From: Octopus vulgaris | Taxonomy: Eukaryota | Assembly: GCA_951406725.2 (NCBI GenBank) | Contig: OX597823.1 | Span: 34,968,001 to 35,032,000 of the forward strand | Length of the DNA stretch: 64,000 nucleotides | Direction: 5' to 3' | Part shown: positions 5,191 to 55,640 of the stretch, in pieces | How the letters are laid out: each line of letters begins with the position of its first letter | How positions within the stretch are numbered: position 1 is the first letter of the stretch | Notes under the pieces: generated by a model | The model's input: the letters and a program-made list of their open reading frames with translations, nothing else | The model's database searches: none | Told to the model about the DNA's origin: nothing | Program-made: the position numbers and the translations under genes

Positions 5191-5262
5191 TATATACATA
5201 CATATATATATATATATATACAACTAAAAACATATTTGTTAATTATTTTTGTTCATTTTCAG

Positions 5263-5407: not shown

Positions 5408-5543
5408 GTCAGTAAATACCCCATGCATTTTACCTCATTACTGAGAAAATATAACCATAATTTTTTTTTATTGCATTGATATAAAAAAAACTGTGTCATT
5501 TTATGAAATGATTGAAGATAATTTGGATTTTTTGTAGATTGTC

Positions 5544-5585
<42 letters not shown>

Positions 5586-5624
5586 TATAGAAAGAGAGAG
5601 AGAAAACTTCAGTGTCAGGCCTGC

Positions 5625-6545
5625 GTGCCTCCACAACCGACGATTGTGTCTCCCCCTGCCACTCCCGTGGAGGAGGCGGAACAGCAACAGCAGCAACAAC
5701 AAAATCAACCACAACCAGAGCAGCAGCAACAACAACAGCAACAACAACAGCAGCAGCAACAACTAGAGCAGCAGCAGCAGCAACAACAAAATCAACCACA
5801 ACCAGAGCAGCAGCAACAACAAAATCAACCACAACCAGAGCAGCAGCAACAACAACATCAACAACAACAACAAAATCAACCACAACCAGAGCAACAGCAG
5901 CAACAACAACAACACCAATTGACCAGTGCGGTTCTTGCAGAACTGCAACAATCGATCTGTGCTTTAAAAGGGGAAGTAGCAGGAATAAAAGCAACCATTC
6001 AGGTTGGACTCCACAATGAGGGGTCTTATCGGAATGCTCTGCTAAAGAACCTCCCTGTACCTGTACCTCTTGTCGCATTTAAGACCGCGGATTCTGCCAC
6101 CCATGAAGTCATTGCCATTGGGGTGCCAGAAGACATGGCTGATCTTCAGGCTTTTGCTGCCAACTCAGCCAAAGACCTAGGCTGCGTTCCCCCAACGGGT
6201 GCTATCCGCCTTGGACGACCTGGCCCAAAACCTAGGCTCATCAAGTTGTCTTTTACGGACCCCACTGAGGCAACCTCTTACCATCTGGCCTCAGTTAAAG
6301 CTGGGCGGGAAAATCGGACCACCTTCCGAACACGCCCAGGCTTACCGTCCGATGTACGCCCAAAGCTACGTGTAGTGGCTTCCCTGAATAGGAACTCAGC
6401 TCTACAGGAAAGCTTCAGTCTTCGGGAAGATGGACAAATCTGGAGATTTGTCAAGACTGCTGAAACGTGGAAGAGAGATACCAGCTGGTCTGAGTGCTCT
6501 CTACCCACAATAACTAAAAAAACTACAGCAACTCAGGGAAACTAA
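5625..6545 (+). CDS. CR1 LINE ORF1 protein (polyQ/NQPQPE repeat region, coiled coil, RRM-like C-terminal part)
   Basis: 306-codon ORF with a GTG (not ATG) start. The frame stays open upstream through LQCQAC. Contains IAIGVPE and AIRLGRPGPKPRLIKLSF motifs typical of LINE ORF1. Ends ...TQGN*. Confidence 0.8.
   Translation: MPPQPTIVSPPATPVEEAEQQQQQQQNQPQPEQQQQQQQQQQQQQQLEQQQQQQQNQPQPEQQQQQNQPQPEQQQQQHQQQQQNQPQPEQQQQQQQHQLTSAVLAELQQSICALKGEVAGIKATIQVGLHNEGSYRNALLKNLPVPVPLVAFKTADSATHEVIAIGVPEDMADLQAFAANSAKDLGCVPPTGAIRLGRPGPKPRLIKLSFTDPTEATSYHLASVKAGRENRTTFRTRPGLPSDVRPKLRVVASLNRNSALQESFSLREDGQIWRFVKTAETWKRDTSWSECSLPTITKKTTATQGN
5680..5920 (+). repeat. CAA/CAG-rich tandem repeat encoding polyQ with 4 x NQPQPE
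   Basis: caaaatcaaccacaaccagag recurs four times between CAA/CAG runs. Confidence 0.95.
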
Positions 6546-6601
6546 GCCAGAACAACCTGCCATCCTCTACACACCATCATAAACTGCGAGCAGGGTACAA
6601 A

Positions 6602-9367
6602 TTGTTGTCCTTAAATGCTCGCAGTTTATGCAACAAAATACATTTGTTCAACGCCTATGTCAGAAGTGTTGACCCTGACTTCATCACTGTCACGGAAACA
6701 TGGGCGCATTCCTTACTCTGTGATGGGGTTTTCAACATTACGGGGTACAACCTCTTCCGTAAGGACCGCACTAACCGCCGTGGTGGTGGTGTGATGGTCT
6801 ACGTTCGTTCAAATTTTTTGGTAATTCCTTGTGCCGATTTGAACGAATCACAAGAAGAAGTTTTTTTCTGTGACGTGCGTATGACCATGTCAACACTCCT
6901 GCTTGGCGTTGTTTATCGTCCCCCAAGTTACCATCGGGACACACAGCTTTGCAATGTCCTCCGAGCTGCTGCCAGGAAAACAGCCACTTATGTGTTTATT
7001 GCAGGCGATTTCAATCATCCTGAGATCGATTGGGAGACCTTCCATTGGCCACAGAGTGCAAACGATTTTGTTGAGCTTGTGCTGGACTCAAACTGGTCAC
7101 AAGTAGTCACCTCTCCAACAAGAGGCGACAACACCTTGGACCTGCTCTTCACCACAACTCCTGAAGCGGTTATCAATTGCACTACGGAGGAACCTCTAGG
7201 TGACTCTGATCATGCTATGATCATCGCCAATCTGGCTCTTGCGGGCAACAAAAACCTGAACCATCTCCAATCTGCTTCCTTCGATTGGAAGAGAGCAGAT
7301 TGGAACCTGTACCACACTGAACTACAGCACCCAAACTGGCGTGAATTCTACAACTCTGGAGATGTGAATACTATACTCCAGAGTATCCTGGACTCAATAT
7401 GGGCAGCATGTGCAGCATCAGTGCCACGTAAACAAAAAAAGAAGAACCGCCCCAAAAGGGCAATTTGGGAAACTTCAGCGGTCCGACTTGCCAGGAGGGA
7501 ACGTCGGACTGCTGAACGGGAATACAGGTTGCATAAATCAGACACCAACAGGAAGAAGCGGAATAAATCCTCCAACCATCTCAAGCAAGTGACAAAAAAA
7601 GCAGTGCTTGAATTTGAACAGTGCATAGCAGCCAATCCTGACAGCAAGGTTTTCTGGAAATATGTGCACTCAAAGCAGAGACCTCACTCTCCAGTGGGCC
7701 CTCTTCGCAACCCTCACACAAACCAGATCACTGACGACCCCAAGGAATGCGCAGAACTCATTGCCGAGTGCTATGCAAACATATTCACTGTTGAAAGTCA
7801 AAATGTACCATCTTCACCATCACTAACAGCAAACTCCATAACAACTATGGAATTTACACCTGCAATGCTGCGACGTCACCTTCAAAATAAGCGCAACTAT
7901 GCCTCCCCTGGTCTCGATGGAGTTACATACCTGCTTCTCAAACGTGGCAGGCACTTCCTTTTACACCAGCTTTCTATTTTCTTCCAGTACTGTCTCAACA
8001 ATGGTGCTACTCCGGAGCAGTGGAAAACTGCCAGTGTCATTCCTCTGTTCAAAAAGGGCGACCGCACATCACCTGTCAACTATCGCCCAGTCAGTCTCAC
8101 TAGCTGTATTGCAAAACTGATGGAATCGTGTGTCAGAGAAACACTCTGGAACTTCTGGAGCTCTCACAGTCTCATCCGACCCTCACAATATGGATTTGTC
8201 CCTAACTCCAGCTGCAGTGACCAGCTTGTCGAGTTCCTTGAGGACATTACTCAGATTACTGACAGTGGCTCATGGGTGGATGTTGTCTACCTTGACTTTG
8301 CTAAGGCTTTCAACTCTGTGCCACACAAAAGGCTTATGGTGAAACTCTCTGCAATGGGTGTGGGGGATGACCTTTTTAACTGGTTGAAATCCTTCATCCT
8401 CAGCCGAAAGGAGGTAGTCACAGTTCTAGGACAGCACTCTACACCATATGAGATGTCATCGGGTGTACCACAGGGATCTGTCCTTGGCCCCCTCTTGTTT
8501 GTGGCATACATTAACGACATAGATGCCAATTTAAAGAATGCCACAGTATTGAAATATGCAGACGACATCAAGCTGTACCTTGAAATCAAGAGGACAGATC
8601 CTGATGTCTACAACTCTTTCCTGCAATCAGACCTAGACACAATGCAGCAATGGATCACAGACTGGCAACTGAAACTGGCTGTGGACAAGTGTACCACCAT
8701 GCATTTTGGGAGAAAAAACCCTGCGTTCACATACTCCCTCCACAACACTGATATCAAGAAATCCTCTTGCGAGCGTGACCTAGGCATCACTGTCAGCAGT
8801 GATTTGCGTTGGTCAAAGCATATCTCTAAGATTGTCAGGAAGGCCGAGGGTGTCTTGGCATCACTCAGCAGGTCTTTTGTTAGCCGCTCTCCAGCCATCT
8901 ATTTAAAACTGTATACAGCTATGGTACGACCACACTTGGAATTCGCATCATCAGTTTGGAACCCCTATCTTGCACAGAACATTGACCTCCTGGAATCTGT
9001 CCAGAGACGTGCAACCAAACGCATACCCTCCATCAGACACCTACCATATTTTGAGCGCCTTGTTTCCCTGGGCATGGATTCACTGAAGCTCCGGCGTTTG
9101 GCGACGGACTTGGTAAACACCCACAAAGTTATCAACCACCTCACCAACAACAACACTGAACACCTTTTTGATCTCCATGTGTCTAACACACGTGGACATG
9201 CCTACAAAGTCAGAAAACAATACAGCTCCCATGACTTTCGGAAACATTTTTTCACGCTCAGAGTTGCTGAAGCATGGAATAAACTGCCTGCGTCAGTTGT
9301 TGACTGCCATGACACTGCATCTTTTAAGGCCCTCATGCTTTCCGAAATCCGCCGAAACTTCACCTGA
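6602..9367 (+). CDS. CR1 LINE ORF2: AP-endonuclease + reverse transcriptase
   Basis: 921 codons with no stops. APE motifs LNARS, TETW, YRPP, GDFN, TLDL, SDH. RT motifs LDFAKAFNSV, GVPQGSVLGP, YADD. CR1-type C-terminus RDLG...VQRRATK...TRGH.YK. The frame is open from 6518; first ATG is at 6794. Confidence 0.97.
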   Translation: MLSLNARSLCNKIHLFNAYVRSVDPDFITVTETWAHSLLCDGVFNITGYNLFRKDRTNRRGGGVMVYVRSNFLVIPCADLNESQEEVFFCDVRMTMSTLLLGVVYRPPSYHRDTQLCNVLRAAARKTATYVFIAGDFNHPEIDWETFHWPQSANDFVELVLDSNWSQVVTSPTRGDNTLDLLFTTTPEAVINCTTEEPLGDSDHAMIIANLALAGNKNLNHLQSASFDWKRADWNLYHTELQHPNWREFYNSGDVNTILQSILDSIWAACAASVPRKQKKKNRPKRAIWETSAVRLARRERRTAEREYRLHKSDTNRKKRNKSSNHLKQVTKKAVLEFEQCIAANPDSKVFWKYVHSKQRPHSPVGPLRNPHTNQITDDPKECAELIAECYANIFTVESQNVPSSPSLTANSITTMEFTPAMLRRHLQNKRNYASPGLDGVTYLLLKRGRHFLLHQLSIFFQYCLNNGATPEQWKTASVIPLFKKGDRTSPVNYRPVSLTSCIAKLMESCVRETLWNFWSSHSLIRPSQYGFVPNSSCSDQLVEFLEDITQITDSGSWVDVVYLDFAKAFNSVPHKRLMVKLSAMGVGDDLFNWLKSFILSRKEVVTVLGQHSTPYEMSSGVPQGSVLGPLLFVAYINDIDANLKNATVLKYADDIKLYLEIKRTDPDVYNSFLQSDLDTMQQWITDWQLKLAVDKCTTMHFGRKNPAFTYSLHNTDIKKSSCERDLGITVSSDLRWSKHISKIVRKAEGVLASLSRSFVSRSPAIYLKLYTAMVRPHLEFASSVWNPYLAQNIDLLESVQRRATKRIPSIRHLPYFERLVSLGMDSLKLRRLATDLVNTHKVINHLTNNNTEHLFDLHVSNTRGHAYKVRKQYSSHDFRKHFFTLRVAEAWNKLPASVVDCHDTASFKALMLSEIRRNFT

Positions 9368-20514: not shown

Positions 20515-21010
20515 ATAGTTGACGTTTAATTTCTCCTTGACAATTGGTATTATTTTGTCTAAAATATTTTTGCTTACCCTTCCTAGGTCGGATTTAGTGG
20601 GGCATATTAGGCGTATTGAAGGTTTGGTAATAAAGTCCTTCTTGTGATCCTTGAGGTTGAAGCATGGAGGTGTAGGGCAGTATGGTTTGGTTCGGTCATC
20701 CACTTGTAATTTCTTCATAAGTTTCCAGTGTTTAGTGTTGATGTCATTTAGGGCAGCTGTTGAAGCCAGCTTGTAGGATTTGTTGAGTTTCTTCTTTATG
20801 AATTTATTGTATTCCTCAATGGTAATGGGTACGTATTTCCTGTTTTATCTGAGAAGTCATGTAATTTGGGGGATGCAGTGATTCATTTTATCATGTGTGA
20901 GATTTTTTTTTGAAAGGGGGATTTATATTTGGATAATTTAATGTTTTTAATTAAATTAATCATATCCGCTTCAAATTTTTTTGAGATGGAGGTTGTGTGT
21001 GGGGTGTTTA
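20515..21010 (-). mobile_element. Penelope-like element RT N-terminal fragment
   Basis: FNLKDHKKDFITKPSIRLICPTKSDLGRVSKNILDKI resembles the PLE (Neptune-type) RT motif LKDHK..F...P..RLI.P.KS. Confidence 0.75.
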
Positions 21011-21494: not shown

Positions 21495-21562
21495 GAATTA
21501 GTAGGGTCTTTTGCTGCTGATTACTATAGTATATGTGGACTAATTTTAGAATCTAGGAAAAG
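21495..21562 (+). CDS. ANKRD13C: ANKRD13C-like coding exon
   Basis: ttacag|GAA...AAA AG|gtaagt. Translates ELVGSFAADYYSICGLILESRK(R). Confidence 0.92.
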
Positions 21563-21847: not shown

Positions 21848-21898
<51 letters not shown>

Positions 21899-21923
21899 CA
21901 TATATATACACACACACACACAC

Positions 21924-21961
<38 letters not shown>

Positions 21962-22048
21962 TATTAGAGACAAAACCACTATTTTGCAAAACAAACAAGG
22001 AAAGACTTAATCAATACATAAAATTTTAATAAATAGTCAAAAAAACTG

Positions 22049-22091
22049 CCACTACAATTGTTTCTTGTCTTGATCGACAATCTTCAGGTGG
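22049..22091 (-). ncRNA. Minimal type I hammerhead ribozyme (mirror copy)
   Basis: Exact reverse complement of 22139-22181 in the left palindrome arm. Confidence 0.78.
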
Positions 22092-22138
22092 ACTTCCAAT
22101 AAGTCAGTTTCATAATTTGAAACTGACTTATTGGAAGT

Positions 22139-22181
22139 CCACCTGAAGATTGTCGATCAAGACAAGAAACAATTGTAGTGG
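22139..22181 (+). ncRNA. Minimal type I hammerhead ribozyme
   Basis: CCAC CUGAAGA UUGUC-gaucaa-GACAA GAAA C AAUU GUA GUGG: full core, stems I and II, palindromic stem III (ACAAUUGU). Predicted cleavage after A22177. Confidence 0.8.
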
Positions 22182-22399
22182 CGGTTTTTTTGACTATTTA
22201 TTAAAATTTTATGTATTGATTAAGTCTTTCCTTGTTTGTTTTGCAAAATAGTGGTTTTGTCTCTAATAATATTTTATAATATTTTACTATAAAATTGGAT
22301 TTAATCCTAAATCTGATTTTTTCCCTGTAAATTTGGATTTATTCCCTAATATTTATTATTTATATATATATATATCTATATATATATATATATATATAT

Positions 22400-22655
22400 G
22401 TCATATCATTGTTTAACGTCCATTCTCCATGCTAGCATGGGTTGGACGGTTCGACCGGGGATCTGGGAAGCCAGAAGGCTGCACCAGGCTCCGGTCTTAT
22501 CTGGCAATGTTTCTACAGCTGGATGCCCTTCCTAACGCCAACCACTCCGTGAGTGTAGTGGGTGCTTTTTACGTGCCACTTGCACTGGTGCCAGACGAGG
22601 CTGGCATCGGCCACGGTCGGATTGGTGCATTTTACGTGCCACCTGTACGGAAGCC
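22400..22655 (-). mobile_element. RTE LINE 3' UTR fragment
   Basis: ccatgctagcatgggttggacg...ggatgcccttcctaacgccaaccactcc shared with 32441-32640. Adjacent to (TA)n. Confidence 0.85.
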
Positions 22656-32440: not shown

Positions 32441-34463
32441 CATCATCATCATCATCATCATTTAGCGTCCGTTTTCCATGCTAGCATGGGTTGGACGGTT
32501 CTACTGGGGTCTGTGAAGCCAGAAGGCTTCATCAGGCCCAGTCAAATCTGGCAGTGTTTCTACGGCTGGATGCCCTTCCTAACGCCAACCACTCCGTGAG
32601 TGTAGTGGGTGCTTTTTACGTGCCACCCGCACTGGTGCCAGACAGAGCTGGCAAACGGCCACGAACGGATGGTGCTTTTTATGTGCCACCGGCACGAGGG
32701 CCAGGCGAGGCTGGCAACGGACACGAAACGGGGCGGTGCTGGCAACGGTCGCGAAACGGAAAGTTCTCTTACATGCCACCGGCACTGGTAACACATCTGC
32801 AATTTCCATTGATCGTTTTTTCCATTCTGATCCTCACTTGCCTCAATGGGTCTTCACAAGCAGAGTTTCGACATGCCACCGGCACTGGTAGCACATCCGC
32901 AATTTCCATTGATCGATTTCGATTCTGATCCTCACTTGCCTCAACACGTCTTCACAAGTAGAGTTTTGTGTCCCAAGAAGGGAAGGTATGCATACGTAGG
33001 CTGGCTCCATCCCATGTAGAAGGCCACGGGTTGTGGACTCACTTGTCCTGCCGGGTCTTCTCGCGCACAGCACACTTCCAGAGGTCTCGGTCTCTAGTCA
33101 TTTCCTCAGTGAGACCTAAAGTTCGAAGGTCGTGCTTCACCACCTCGTCCCAGGTTTTCCTGGGTCTGCCTCTTCCACAGGTTCCCTCAACCGCTAGGGT
33201 GTGGCACTTTTTCACACAACTATCTTCATCCATTCTCGCCACATGACCATACCAGCGCAAACGTCTCTCTTGCACACCACAACTGATGCTTCTTAGGTCC
33301 AGCTTTTCTCTCAAGGTACTTACACTCTGCCGAGTGTGAGTACCGGCATTACACATCCATCGGAGCATACTGGCTTCATTTCTAGCGAGCTTACGCATAT
33401 CCTCAGCAGTTACGGCCCATGTTTCACTGCCATGTAGCATGGCTGTTCGTACACACGCATCATACAGTCTGCCTTTCACTCTGTGCGAGAGGCCTTTTGT
33501 CACCAGCAGAGGTAAGAGCTCTCTGAACTTTGCCCAAGCTATTCTTACTCTAGCAGTTACACTTTCAGCACACCCGCCCCCGCTGCTGACTTGGTCACCT
33601 AGGTAACGGAAACTATCAACTATTTCTAGTTTTTCTCCCTGGAAAGTGACGGAAGTTGGTCTCAGAGCATTTTCAGTGTTTATTGTTCCTGAGCATCTGC
33701 CACATACAAAAACCATCTTCCTAGTTAGTCTTCCTTTGACATTGCTGCATCTCTTATGTGTCCATAGCTTACACTTGGTGCATCTTATAGAGTTTCTACC
33801 TACACCTTTTCTACAGATCGAGCAGGGCCATCTACCTGAAGGTGTTTGTGATTTGTCTACCTTCCTACTGATTACGACTTTGGTTTTAGCTAGATTGACT
33901 CTGAGGCCCTTCGATTCTAATCCTTGTTTCCACACCTGAAACTTCTCCTCCAGTTCTGATAGCGACTCAGCAATTAGAGCAAGGTCATCAGCATAGAGGA
34001 GCTCCCAAGGGCATCCTGTCTTGAATTCCTCCGTTATTGCCTGGAGGACTATGATAAATAGGAGGGGGCTGAGTACTGAGCCTTGGTGGACCCCTACCTC
34101 TACCCGGAATTCTTCACTGTACTCATTTCCAACCCTCACCCTACTAGCGGCGTCCCTATACATGGCCCGCACAGCTCTCACTAACCATTCATCTATCCCT
34201 AGTTTTCTCATTGCCCACCAGATAAGGGATCGGGGGACCCTGTCGAAGGCTTTCTCCATGTCAACAAAAGCCAGGTACAGGGGCTTATCTTTGGCTAGGT
34301 ATTTCTCCTGCAGCTGCCTTACCAGGAATATAGCATCAGTAGTACTTTTCCCTGGCACAAACCCAAACTGCATCTCATCTAAACTAACTCTCTCTCTAAT
34401 TAGTTGGGCTATGACCCTCTCTGTAACCTTCATCACCTGGTCCAACAGCTTGATACCTCTGTA
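32441..34463 (-). mobile_element. Young RTE-clade LINE, 5'-truncated, inserted antisense into a (TA)n microsatellite
   Basis: Uninterrupted RT ORF, a ~600-bp 3' UTR with internal repeats, terminal stem-loop cgtcc..ccatgctagcatgg..ggacg and a (GAT)n tail. Confidence 0.95.
33039..34463 (-). CDS. RTE reverse transcriptase (partial) with internal C4HC3 finger
   Basis: YRGIKLL...QFGF...[11 protein letters not shown]...[10 protein letters not shown]...LLYADD...FRYLG...RRLRWYGHV...GRGRPRKTW...RDRDLW. The true element boundary is at YRGIKLL; the upstream YIYI run is microsatellite. Confidence 0.93.
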
Positions 34464-34617
<154 letters not shown>

Positions 34618-34659
34618 AGATATATATATATATATATGGAGATATATATATATATATGG

Positions 34660-34706
<47 letters not shown>

Positions 34707-34711
34707 TATAT

Positions 34712-35010
34712 ATTATAGCCTCAGGCCGATCAAAGCCTTGTGAATGGGTTTCATACACATGTTTATATTTGTGTGCATGTGAGTGTGTCTGTGTTTATTC
34801 CCCCACCATTGCTTGACAACTGTAACTTAGTGGTTCGGCAAAAGACACTGATAGAATAAGTACTAGCCTTATAAAGAATAAATTCTGTGGTTGATTTTGT
34901 TCAACCAAATGCGGTGCTCCAGCATGGCTGCAGTCACATGACAAAAACAAGTAAAACAATTAAAAAAGTATGCCATTTTAATCCCGAACAAGGCCGGGTG
35001 TCTCTGCAAT
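34712..35010 (+). mobile_element. SINE 3' fragment fused to a Helitron-like 3' hairpin
   Basis: SINE tail followed by tatgccattttaatcccgaacaaggccgggtgtctctgc. Same composite as 50703-51025. Confidence 0.65.
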
Positions 35011-49514: not shown

Positions 49515-49559
49515 GGACCACTGATGAGGTCACAGGAGTGTGACGAAAGAACTCTGGCC
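49515..49559 (+). ncRNA. Minimal hammerhead ribozyme with an extra G after the CUGAUGA core
   Basis: GG(A)CCA CUGAUGA G GUCACA-ggag-UGUGAC GAAA G-aa-CUC UGGCC. Predicted cleavage after C49554. Confidence 0.65.
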
Positions 49560-55118: not shown

Positions 55119-55269
55119 ATTTTAATAGGAGGGTTAGCGACCTTAAAAGTTGCAATTGTAGGTATAAAAACCACTGTAAACTTAACGGTAGATGTAATGT
55201 AATGGATGTAGTATATAAATATGTGGTTTCTGTAAATATAGATGGAAATGAATAAAGCGAAATAAATAA

Positions 55270-55640
55270 TACGGATATTGAAAGTTATCCAGATAGAACG
55301 TATATTGGGTCCACATCGAATAAAATTAAACAACGAATAGCACAGCATATGAATTCATTTAGAAATAAGAAACTAATGAAATCAACAGGTTTAAGTAAAT
55401 ACATTTGGAGGTTAAACTTGAAAGAAATCAAATATGAATTAAAGTGGGAAATAATAAGTAAAACTAAATCATATAGAATTGAGAATACGTTATGTCTGTT
55501 GTGTACCCATGAATTAATGGAGATATTATGGGCCAAAACGAGACTACTTAACGCTCAGAAGGAAAAAAAAATGAAATGTAAACATACACTGAAGTGTTTA
55601 ATTAATAACGTCCAACCCTAAAATAAAGAAATAAATTTAA
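55270..55640 (+). mobile_element. Penelope-like element GIY-YIG endonuclease C-terminal fragment
   Basis: YPDRTYIGSTSNKIKQRIAQHMNSFRNKKLMKSTGLSKYIWRL...KWEIISKTKSY...CLLCTHE..ILW...LLN. Confidence 0.8.

Follow-up and report, generated by a model that had tools for sequence, protein, structure and literature searches.

The locus considered here raises two linked questions: how a near-perfect palindrome with a hammerhead ribozyme motif on each strand came to lie in an intron of an octopus gene, and whether it matters to that gene. The palindrome is situated in a stretch of 64,000 nucleotides of the Octopus vulgaris genome (contig OX597823.1, positions 34,968,001 to 35,032,000), hereafter the window, whose numbering we use throughout. 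An exon of an ANKRD13-family gene lies 389 nt upstream, and + strand exon matches to PF11904 (ANKRD13_C), at window positions 5261, 19784 and 31307, are found on both sides of the insertion. Thus, the insertion is intronic in this gene, about 390 nt past one of its exons, as the preliminary description of the locus had stated; a host exon downstream of the insertion was sought in the window and was not located.

The inverted repeat has arms of 161 nt each (21952-22112 and 22118-22278), 5 nt apart, with a single mismatch, T at 22047 versus G at 22183, giving a G-U pair in the + strand RNA. Relative to the family, the left arm has T in place of C at a CpG, which accounts for the mismatch. The predicted fold of the palindrome has an energy of -262 kcal/mol (z = -46 versus 100 shuffles), far more stable than shuffled sequences. 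The near-perfect repeat, as initially described, was reproduced together with its mismatch. Its symmetry did not hold: set against other copies, the right arm extends ~80 nt past the repeat, to about 22361, in a tail of 83 nt, and the supposed 5-nt loop is exon-1 sequence of the element that is part of the right arm alone. The insertion is flanked by (TA)n at both ends, which would hide any target-site duplication in the repeat. In the list below, the short and the long site are the two positions at which the arms end, and element mRNA is numbered from the A of the initiator-like TCACTT of the parent element. At this locus the short arm starts at 12 and the long arm at 3, and the overlap between them is 4 nt.

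21495 to 21562, + strand: exon of the ANKRD13-family gene, with an open frame and AG/GT ends, 389 nt upstream of the insertion.
21851 to 21955, no strand: left (TA)n/(CA)n microsatellite, target site.
21952 to 22112, - strand: left arm, element mRNA about 12-172, with exon 1 spliced to exon 2; its 3' end is the short site, joined to (TA)n.
22049 to 22091, - strand: mirror copy of the hammerhead, in the left arm.
22109 to 22361, + strand: right arm, element mRNA 3 to about 255; its 3' end is the long site, and it shares a 4-nt microhomology with the left arm at 22109-22112.
22129 to 22130, + strand: splice junction, from which the parent's GT-AG intron of 1816-1818 nt is gone; the mirror junction is 22101/22100 on the minus strand.
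22139 to 22181, + strand: type I minimal hammerhead with a palindromic stem III, predicted cut 22177/22178, copied uncut.
22279 to 22361, + strand: tail of 83 nt, the segment from the short to the long site, on one arm only.
22362 to 22400, no strand: right (TA)n, target site.

A long element was found between widely spaced opposite-strand pairs. The parent copy (L227/L228) has an intact ORF of 838 aa between two direct repeats 5996 bp apart, plus an inverted arm, that is, the pLTR layout of partial-tandem direct pLTRs, an inverted copy and a tail. Its exon 1 (positions 1-23) is followed by the GT-AG intron of 1816-1818 nt, which sits in the 5' UTR; the ribozyme cut falls after 71, the short end near 172, the long end near 253, and the ATG at 310. 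A short element with its own 5' end had also been considered, and was dropped once the intron of the parent was found.

The ORF carries the motifs YRDD (reverse transcriptase, RT) and VYIG...R (GIY-YIG) and aligns over its full length with relatives, those with names being from Argonauta and Octopus, while a Pfam scan of the parent ORF gave no RT or GIY-YIG match. The window also contains the nuclease part of a diverged element of the same clade (55256-55621, + strand, 56% identical to the parent ORF), which has a GIY-YIG match in Pfam, weak and below the cut-off. By the motif definition of Craig et al. 2021 (PMC8557442), the parent appears to fit a Hydra-clade Penelope-like element (PLE). It shares with that clade, as described there, the RT with a C-terminal GIY-YIG, DKT, the CxCX5C linker, CxxC and CxH round conserved E and N with no CCHH, and also the pLTR hammerhead, the (TA)n targets, the inverted 5'-truncated copy and the tail at one end only. 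The Neptune clade was ruled out, its CCHH nuclease, CX2-5CxxC linker and DKG all being absent. The octopus unit differs in being 6.0 kb long owing to its 1.8-kb intron, whereas published Hydra families are mostly under 3 kb, in a tail of about 80 rather than 30-40 nt, and in having KWK where the Hydra definition has RWK (PMC8557442); five relatives have RWK, RWR or RWV. The PLE origin given in the preliminary description is borne out, but the main point, the splicing and the asymmetry of the arms, had been missed. Residues about 505-615 of the L227 ORF form an Asn-rich insertion between the RT and the nuclease, which is missing in five relatives and resembles the N-rich inserts of Penelope ORFs in Adineta vaga, where an initiator-like TCACT is likewise found in the pLTR (PMC3846280).

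In the window, exon 1 abuts exon 2 at 22129/22130 and likewise in the mirror arm, and such a precise loss of a GT-AG intron relative to the parent is the mark of a processed (spliced) retrocopy. Over the genome searched (2.8 Gb, 227 contigs) there are 3041 exact copies of a 29-mer further 3' of the ribozyme, that is, about 3000 arms. Exact junctions number 314 for spliced and 296 for unspliced arms, and an alternative donor (+4) is used in 32 more, or about 9% of spliced arms (32/346). Where the first GT of an element is mutated, the matching spliced copies use the next GT, and an older subfamily has both spliced and unspliced forms. Three long copies (L088, L090, L093) have the exon-1 region duplicated, with the first GT donor mutated in some. 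At selected loci, a non-random sample, four haplotypes are common to unspliced, spliced and +4 arms, hence stubs such as the present one arise repeatedly from intron-bearing sources. As judged from sequence, the splice pattern reflects sense RNA processed by the spliceosome, on repeated occasions and from several sources.

The 5' ends of the two kinds of copies differ as well. With spliced matches taken in order of position, 98 of the first 100 stop at +1 to +13 and two, from one insertion, go upstream, whereas all 39 intron-followed exon-1 copies, internal exon-1 duplicates included, read through +1. Thus, promoter-initiated RNA would be the source of spliced copies, and read-through RNA that of unspliced ones. 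Spliced arms reaching +1 (n = 47) have a G before it in 26 cases, an A in 11, a T in 4 and the C of the genomic sequence in 6; of these last six, five read through by about 25-300 nt, and the sixth has its C by microhomology. An extra 5' G is the mark of a copied cap in LINE-1 (PMC4859970), although microhomology with the partner arm could also account for many of these 26 G's. Copies running from the hammerhead region into the ORF were seen only twice, both unspliced, which is too few to prove that the intron is always kept.

To relate the arms to each other, we called their ends by markers; alignment-based calls are noisy in AT-rich flanks. Of 120 spliced insertions, part were picked for identity or 5' completeness, and only 71 (100 arms) are position-ordered. 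Among the latter we observe 51 pairs of a short and a long arm, three more of this type with a longer spacer, one pair of two short arms, three pairs with an unclassifiable arm, and 13 single arms. A genome-wide count of palindromic versus single copies had been proposed in the preliminary description, and in this position-ordered sample 58 of 71 insertions are two-armed. Classifiable spliced pairs combine a short and a long arm in 51 of 52 position-ordered cases (87 of 88 overall), and unspliced pairs do so in 26 of 28; in the remaining two, an inner repeat runs on into the ORF. That PLEs have a tail on one arm has been reported before (PMC8557442, PMC3846280), and these counts add its near-strict exclusivity to one arm. 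The sole palindrome of two short arms (L133, G000:C1:40386881-40387239) is followed by a (TA)n tract and a single long arm, and may be one three-armed event. At another locus (L254-L256, G000:C5:64451610-64451851) three short +4 arms lie in tandem with a small inverted piece before each, the inner two ending just past the ribozyme.

The arms of a pair usually agree with each other. On C1-C4, head-to-head neighbours are both spliced in 19 cases, both unspliced in 27 and mixed in none (71 and 100 matches; Fisher p = 2e-13). The SNP at 65 is present in both arms of 10 pairs and in one arm of 2 (expected 1.8 and 18.5), that at 90 in both arms of 12 pairs and in one arm of 1 (expected 2.2 and 20.7), and arm-to-arm divergence is 0.6%. 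For +4 arms (30 of the 32 matches examined), the partner spanning the junction is also +4 in about 10 insertions and differs in one (L261). Gene conversion, or two RNAs transcribed from a single source locus, could also produce shared SNPs, and post-insertion deletions could shorten arms.

These data bear first on a variant in which two RNAs are used, an asymmetric RNP dimer, possibly held together by the palindromic stem III of the ribozyme, using the short site to prime on one RNA and the long site on the other, while concordance would follow from a common source locus and compartment. Intermolecular pairing of stem III is indeed predicted to be favoured (dimer -24 kcal/mol, 8-bp duplex), a common A-to-G variant leaves this stem paired, and in some pairs one arm is full while the other starts just 3' of the hammerhead cut. 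The discordant +4 pair and the pair of two short arms in L133 show, moreover, that two-RNA events occur. However, the +4 isoform makes up only about a tenth of spliced arms and resides on four haplotypes, yet its partners are concordant in about 10 insertions versus one, and we consider this variant unlikely as the general explanation.

If, vice versa, one cDNA folded back and primed its own copy, the second arm would repeat the first, which accounts for the shared SNPs and the shared splice state; the junctions do cluster at short self-complementary words. The published version of such self-priming, proposed for Adineta vaga Penelope (Arkhipova et al. 2013, PMC3846280), acts on an antisense transcript and would also account for intron retention. 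In that study, which favours the mechanism and leaves the question open, the pLTRs are head-to-head and inverted, with palindromic junctions and a tail on one of them, as here. A spliced junction needs a sense template, however, and 314 arms have one. In a snap-back, furthermore, the long arm must always start more 5', whereas the short arm does so in 35 of 87 pairs and stands at +1 in 19. A lead of at least 15 nt belongs to the short arm in 19 of the 87 pairs and to the long arm in 14; the start lies past the short site in four long arms, and four pairs have both arms at +1. Thus, neither arm can have been copied from its partner, and a snap-back is already contradicted for the family unless later deletions stop exactly at +1. 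For this octopus family, the spliced arms and the arm starts would accordingly point away from antisense self-priming as presented in that account and to a sense template with two separate cDNAs; we hold self-priming in either form to be very improbable.

A further alternative makes the stub a non-autonomous family of its own, retrozyme- or MITE-like, that propagates itself from a spliced palindromic master. Near-identical short copies do occur by the hundred, but their junctions vary from locus to locus, their haplotypes are those of intron-bearing elements, and no head-to-tail monomer arrays are present in the pairing lists, the spliced neighbours on C1-C4 being head-to-head only. Non-LTR retrozymes, as presented in the accessible text of a preprint (bioRxiv 10.64898/2026.07.22.740005), are likewise short, non-coding, PLE-related and provided with a type I hammerhead, yet they form head-to-tail tandem arrays, whereas the octopus stub is a head-to-head pair with no sign of self-propagation. 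The chance that this alternative is correct seems to us slighter still than that of self-priming.

The junctions between arms (n = 92) have an overlap of 1-5 nt in 61 cases, are blunt in 7 and contain inserts in 24; the overlap is at least 4 nt in 24, versus about 5% by chance. Contigs from four sequencing runs were also inspected: none spans the locus, and three of the runs cover its unique left flank. Contigs of the same runs show the family, the +4 isoform and some arm-to-arm joints. An assembly artefact is unlikely, as the pairing of one short with one long arm, the varied junctions and the CpG change between the arms are unexpected of chimeric reads.

The pattern as a whole suggests that the template is sense RNA, mostly a single molecule, and that each event gives two cDNAs, one started at the short and the other at the long site. 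Our preferred reading, with a probability of about 0.7, is that the insertion arose when the spliced 5' end of a Hydra-clade PLE RNA was copied into DNA twice, head to head, likely by twin priming on one capped mRNA molecule. Under twin priming, the GIY-YIG endonuclease would nick both strands of a (TA)n tract, and each nicked 3' end would prime reverse transcription on the same RNA, at one of two internal sites within its 5' UTR. The two cDNAs would both pass the uncut hammerhead and reach the cap, the trailing cDNA displacing the leading one; strand displacement is assumed here, and to our knowledge PLE reverse transcriptases have no RNase H. The 3' ends of the cDNAs would then anneal via 1-5 nt, so that each would template the second strand of the other. 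Since spliced mRNA offers only about 170-255 nt upstream of the priming sites, it would yield dead-end stubs like this one, while ORF-bearing copies would need read-through RNA, primed at the downstream terminal repeat, with the intron mostly unspliced.

In a more general form, which we put at slightly better than even odds, twin priming on a single sense RNA would be the rule for PLE integration: each of the two target strands would prime at its own fixed internal site, and the cDNAs would be mutual second-strand templates. Spliced capped mRNA would be used about half the time and give only short dead-end palindromes, hence ORF-bearing copies would keep the intron. This explanation of intron retention fits, so far as sequence goes, the two ORF-bearing unspliced copies.

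The hammerhead itself was checked by hand. On the + strand, stem I is formed by 22139-42 and 22178-81, CUGAAGA is at 22143-49, the 5-bp stem II at 22150-65, and GAAA at 22166-69; stem III is the self-complementary ACAAUUGU at 22169-76, and the cut is predicted after A22177. The core CUGANGA, GAAA, NUH, stems I and II and the palindromic stem III are thus all present, as in a type I minimal hammerhead, and inspection confirmed both the intact motif on each strand and its dimer-type character, which had been noted at the outset. The scan with hammerhead models that had been suggested then gave a different outcome: an Rfam search returned no hammerhead among 18 matches at E <= 10, only miRNA-type hairpins below the gathering score. 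Metazoan PLE minimal hammerheads (Cervera and De la Pena 2014, PMC4209133) have the same short helix I, palindromic helix III and dimer-type organization. Two opposite-strand hammerheads in PLE remnants are also already published, as motif pairs 100-700 bp apart, and in D. virilis an intron has its end beside the motif (PMC4209133). The octopus motif differs in the 10.1-11.1 pair of stem II, which is U-A in place of the usual, highly conserved G10.1-C11.1 (PMC4209133); in the older subfamily this first pair is A-U. Another type I hammerhead-like motif, unrelated to the first and with a CUGAUGA core and a 6-bp stem II, was found by a pattern scan at 49518-49557 (+ strand) of the window.

The 43-nt ribozyme has 492 exact copies in the genome. 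In the predicted fold, the isolated motif is an active monomer 0.4% of the time. Most arms run across the cut site, unlike what a cleavage-defined template would give. Nevertheless, the 5' ends of the 100 position-ordered arms are more frequent past the cut (20 in 72-100 versus 6 in 27-71; p = 1.5e-4; start calls of 91 reflect the SNP at 90, the true starts being at about 78-82). A search for palindromes in which both arms start at the cut gave four insertions, three joined inside stem III and one at the cut, a weak indication; in one palindrome of a short and a long arm (L344, G000:C6:116842860) both starts coincide exactly with the cut, and a 6-nt insert separates them. The ribozyme may have cleaved a minority of templates, but the excess of 5' ends past the cut is equally explained by RT stalling or by AT-rich microhomology.

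We can now return to the host gene. The preliminary description had proposed a host-relevant ribozyme in the ANKRD13 intron, self-silenced or gated by editing. In its favour, the insertion is 389 nt from an exon and on the strand of the gene, and the predicted fold of the + strand transcript leaves stem I or II a pair probability below 1e-17, so that the claimed sequestration of the ribozyme in the pre-mRNA is upheld by prediction. This sequestration follows, however, from the head-to-head geometry, which is the default product of the family (two arms in 58 of the 71 position-ordered insertions), and an arrangement specific to this locus is not supported. The insertion is also, on sequence identity, young, because its right arm is identical over 161 nt to at least 43 places. 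Comparable minimal motifs, moreover, are reported as poor cutters alone (PMC4209133) and as needing the protein of the element (PMC11167929). A host role, to which none of the observations points, is, in our estimate, the least probable of all the readings weighed. This is an ordinary dead-end insertion, probably of no importance to the host gene, and the hammerhead would be a passenger of the insertion, predicted to be buried in the host-intron hairpin. Action of ADAR or Dicer on a hairpin of 161 bp would be plausible.

Other mobile elements are present around the insertion. The N-terminal part of the RT of a diverged element of the same clade, 49% identical to the parent ORF, is located in the same host gene ~1.2 kb off the palindrome (20548-20781, - strand). 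A seemingly intact LINE inside the ANKRD13-family gene (5538-9367, + strand) consists of a Gln-rich frame of 335 aa and, after it, an open endonuclease/RT-like frame of 949 aa, and the RT-like frame of another LINE (33039-34712, - strand) is interrupted by a (TA)n tract.

In LINE-1, twin priming inverts a non-overlapping 5' part, uses variable sites and occurs in a minority of events. Common to LINE-1 and the octopus family would be the priming of both target strands on one RNA and the extra G at complete 5' ends (reviewed in PMC4859970), whereas in the octopus family the sites are fixed for both primers, the same sequence is copied twice, and this is the usual outcome. A biochemical counterpart comes from Anolis Poseidon in vitro (Frangieh et al. 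2024, PMC11167929): its protein cuts and extends both strands and uses uncut hammerhead RNA, a dimer is predicted, and two internal start sites bound the tail, as they do here. The Poseidon sites are in the ORF and bulk reads cannot pair them, whereas those of the octopus family are in the 5' UTR and occur one short and one long per insertion; splicing and head-to-head joining are absent from the accessible text of that study (PMC11167929). Similarly, the Hydra-clade account, as far as its accessible text extends, contains no description of spliced genomic copies (PMC8557442). The layout of D. virilis Penelope is comparable, but its intron is shorter (PMC2377424).

The origin of PLE inverted structures, of their tails and of intron retention is given as open in the available parts of two accounts (PMC8557442, PMC3846280), the significance of intron retention being termed unknown in the former, while an argument from selection has been made in PMC2377424. 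Our literature search returned no account of spliced palindromic PLE copies or of PLE twin priming, although subscription papers (Arkhipova 2003, 2006; Evgen'ev and Arkhipova 2005) and supplementary figures may hold some. The family-level pattern, namely spliced templates, the pairing of one short with one long arm, and single-RNA concordance, did not turn up in the literature searched.

The counts obtained for the octopus family discriminate among models of PLE insertion, and the analysis of palindromes provides a method for other genomes that contain them. The near-perfect hairpins of the family, numbering in the hundreds, are candidate editing substrates. If twin priming is true, such palindromes would be a genomic record of the start site, the cap, the splice isoforms and occasional ribozyme cleavage, and they would help to explain both how PLEs insert and why full-length copies contain an intron.
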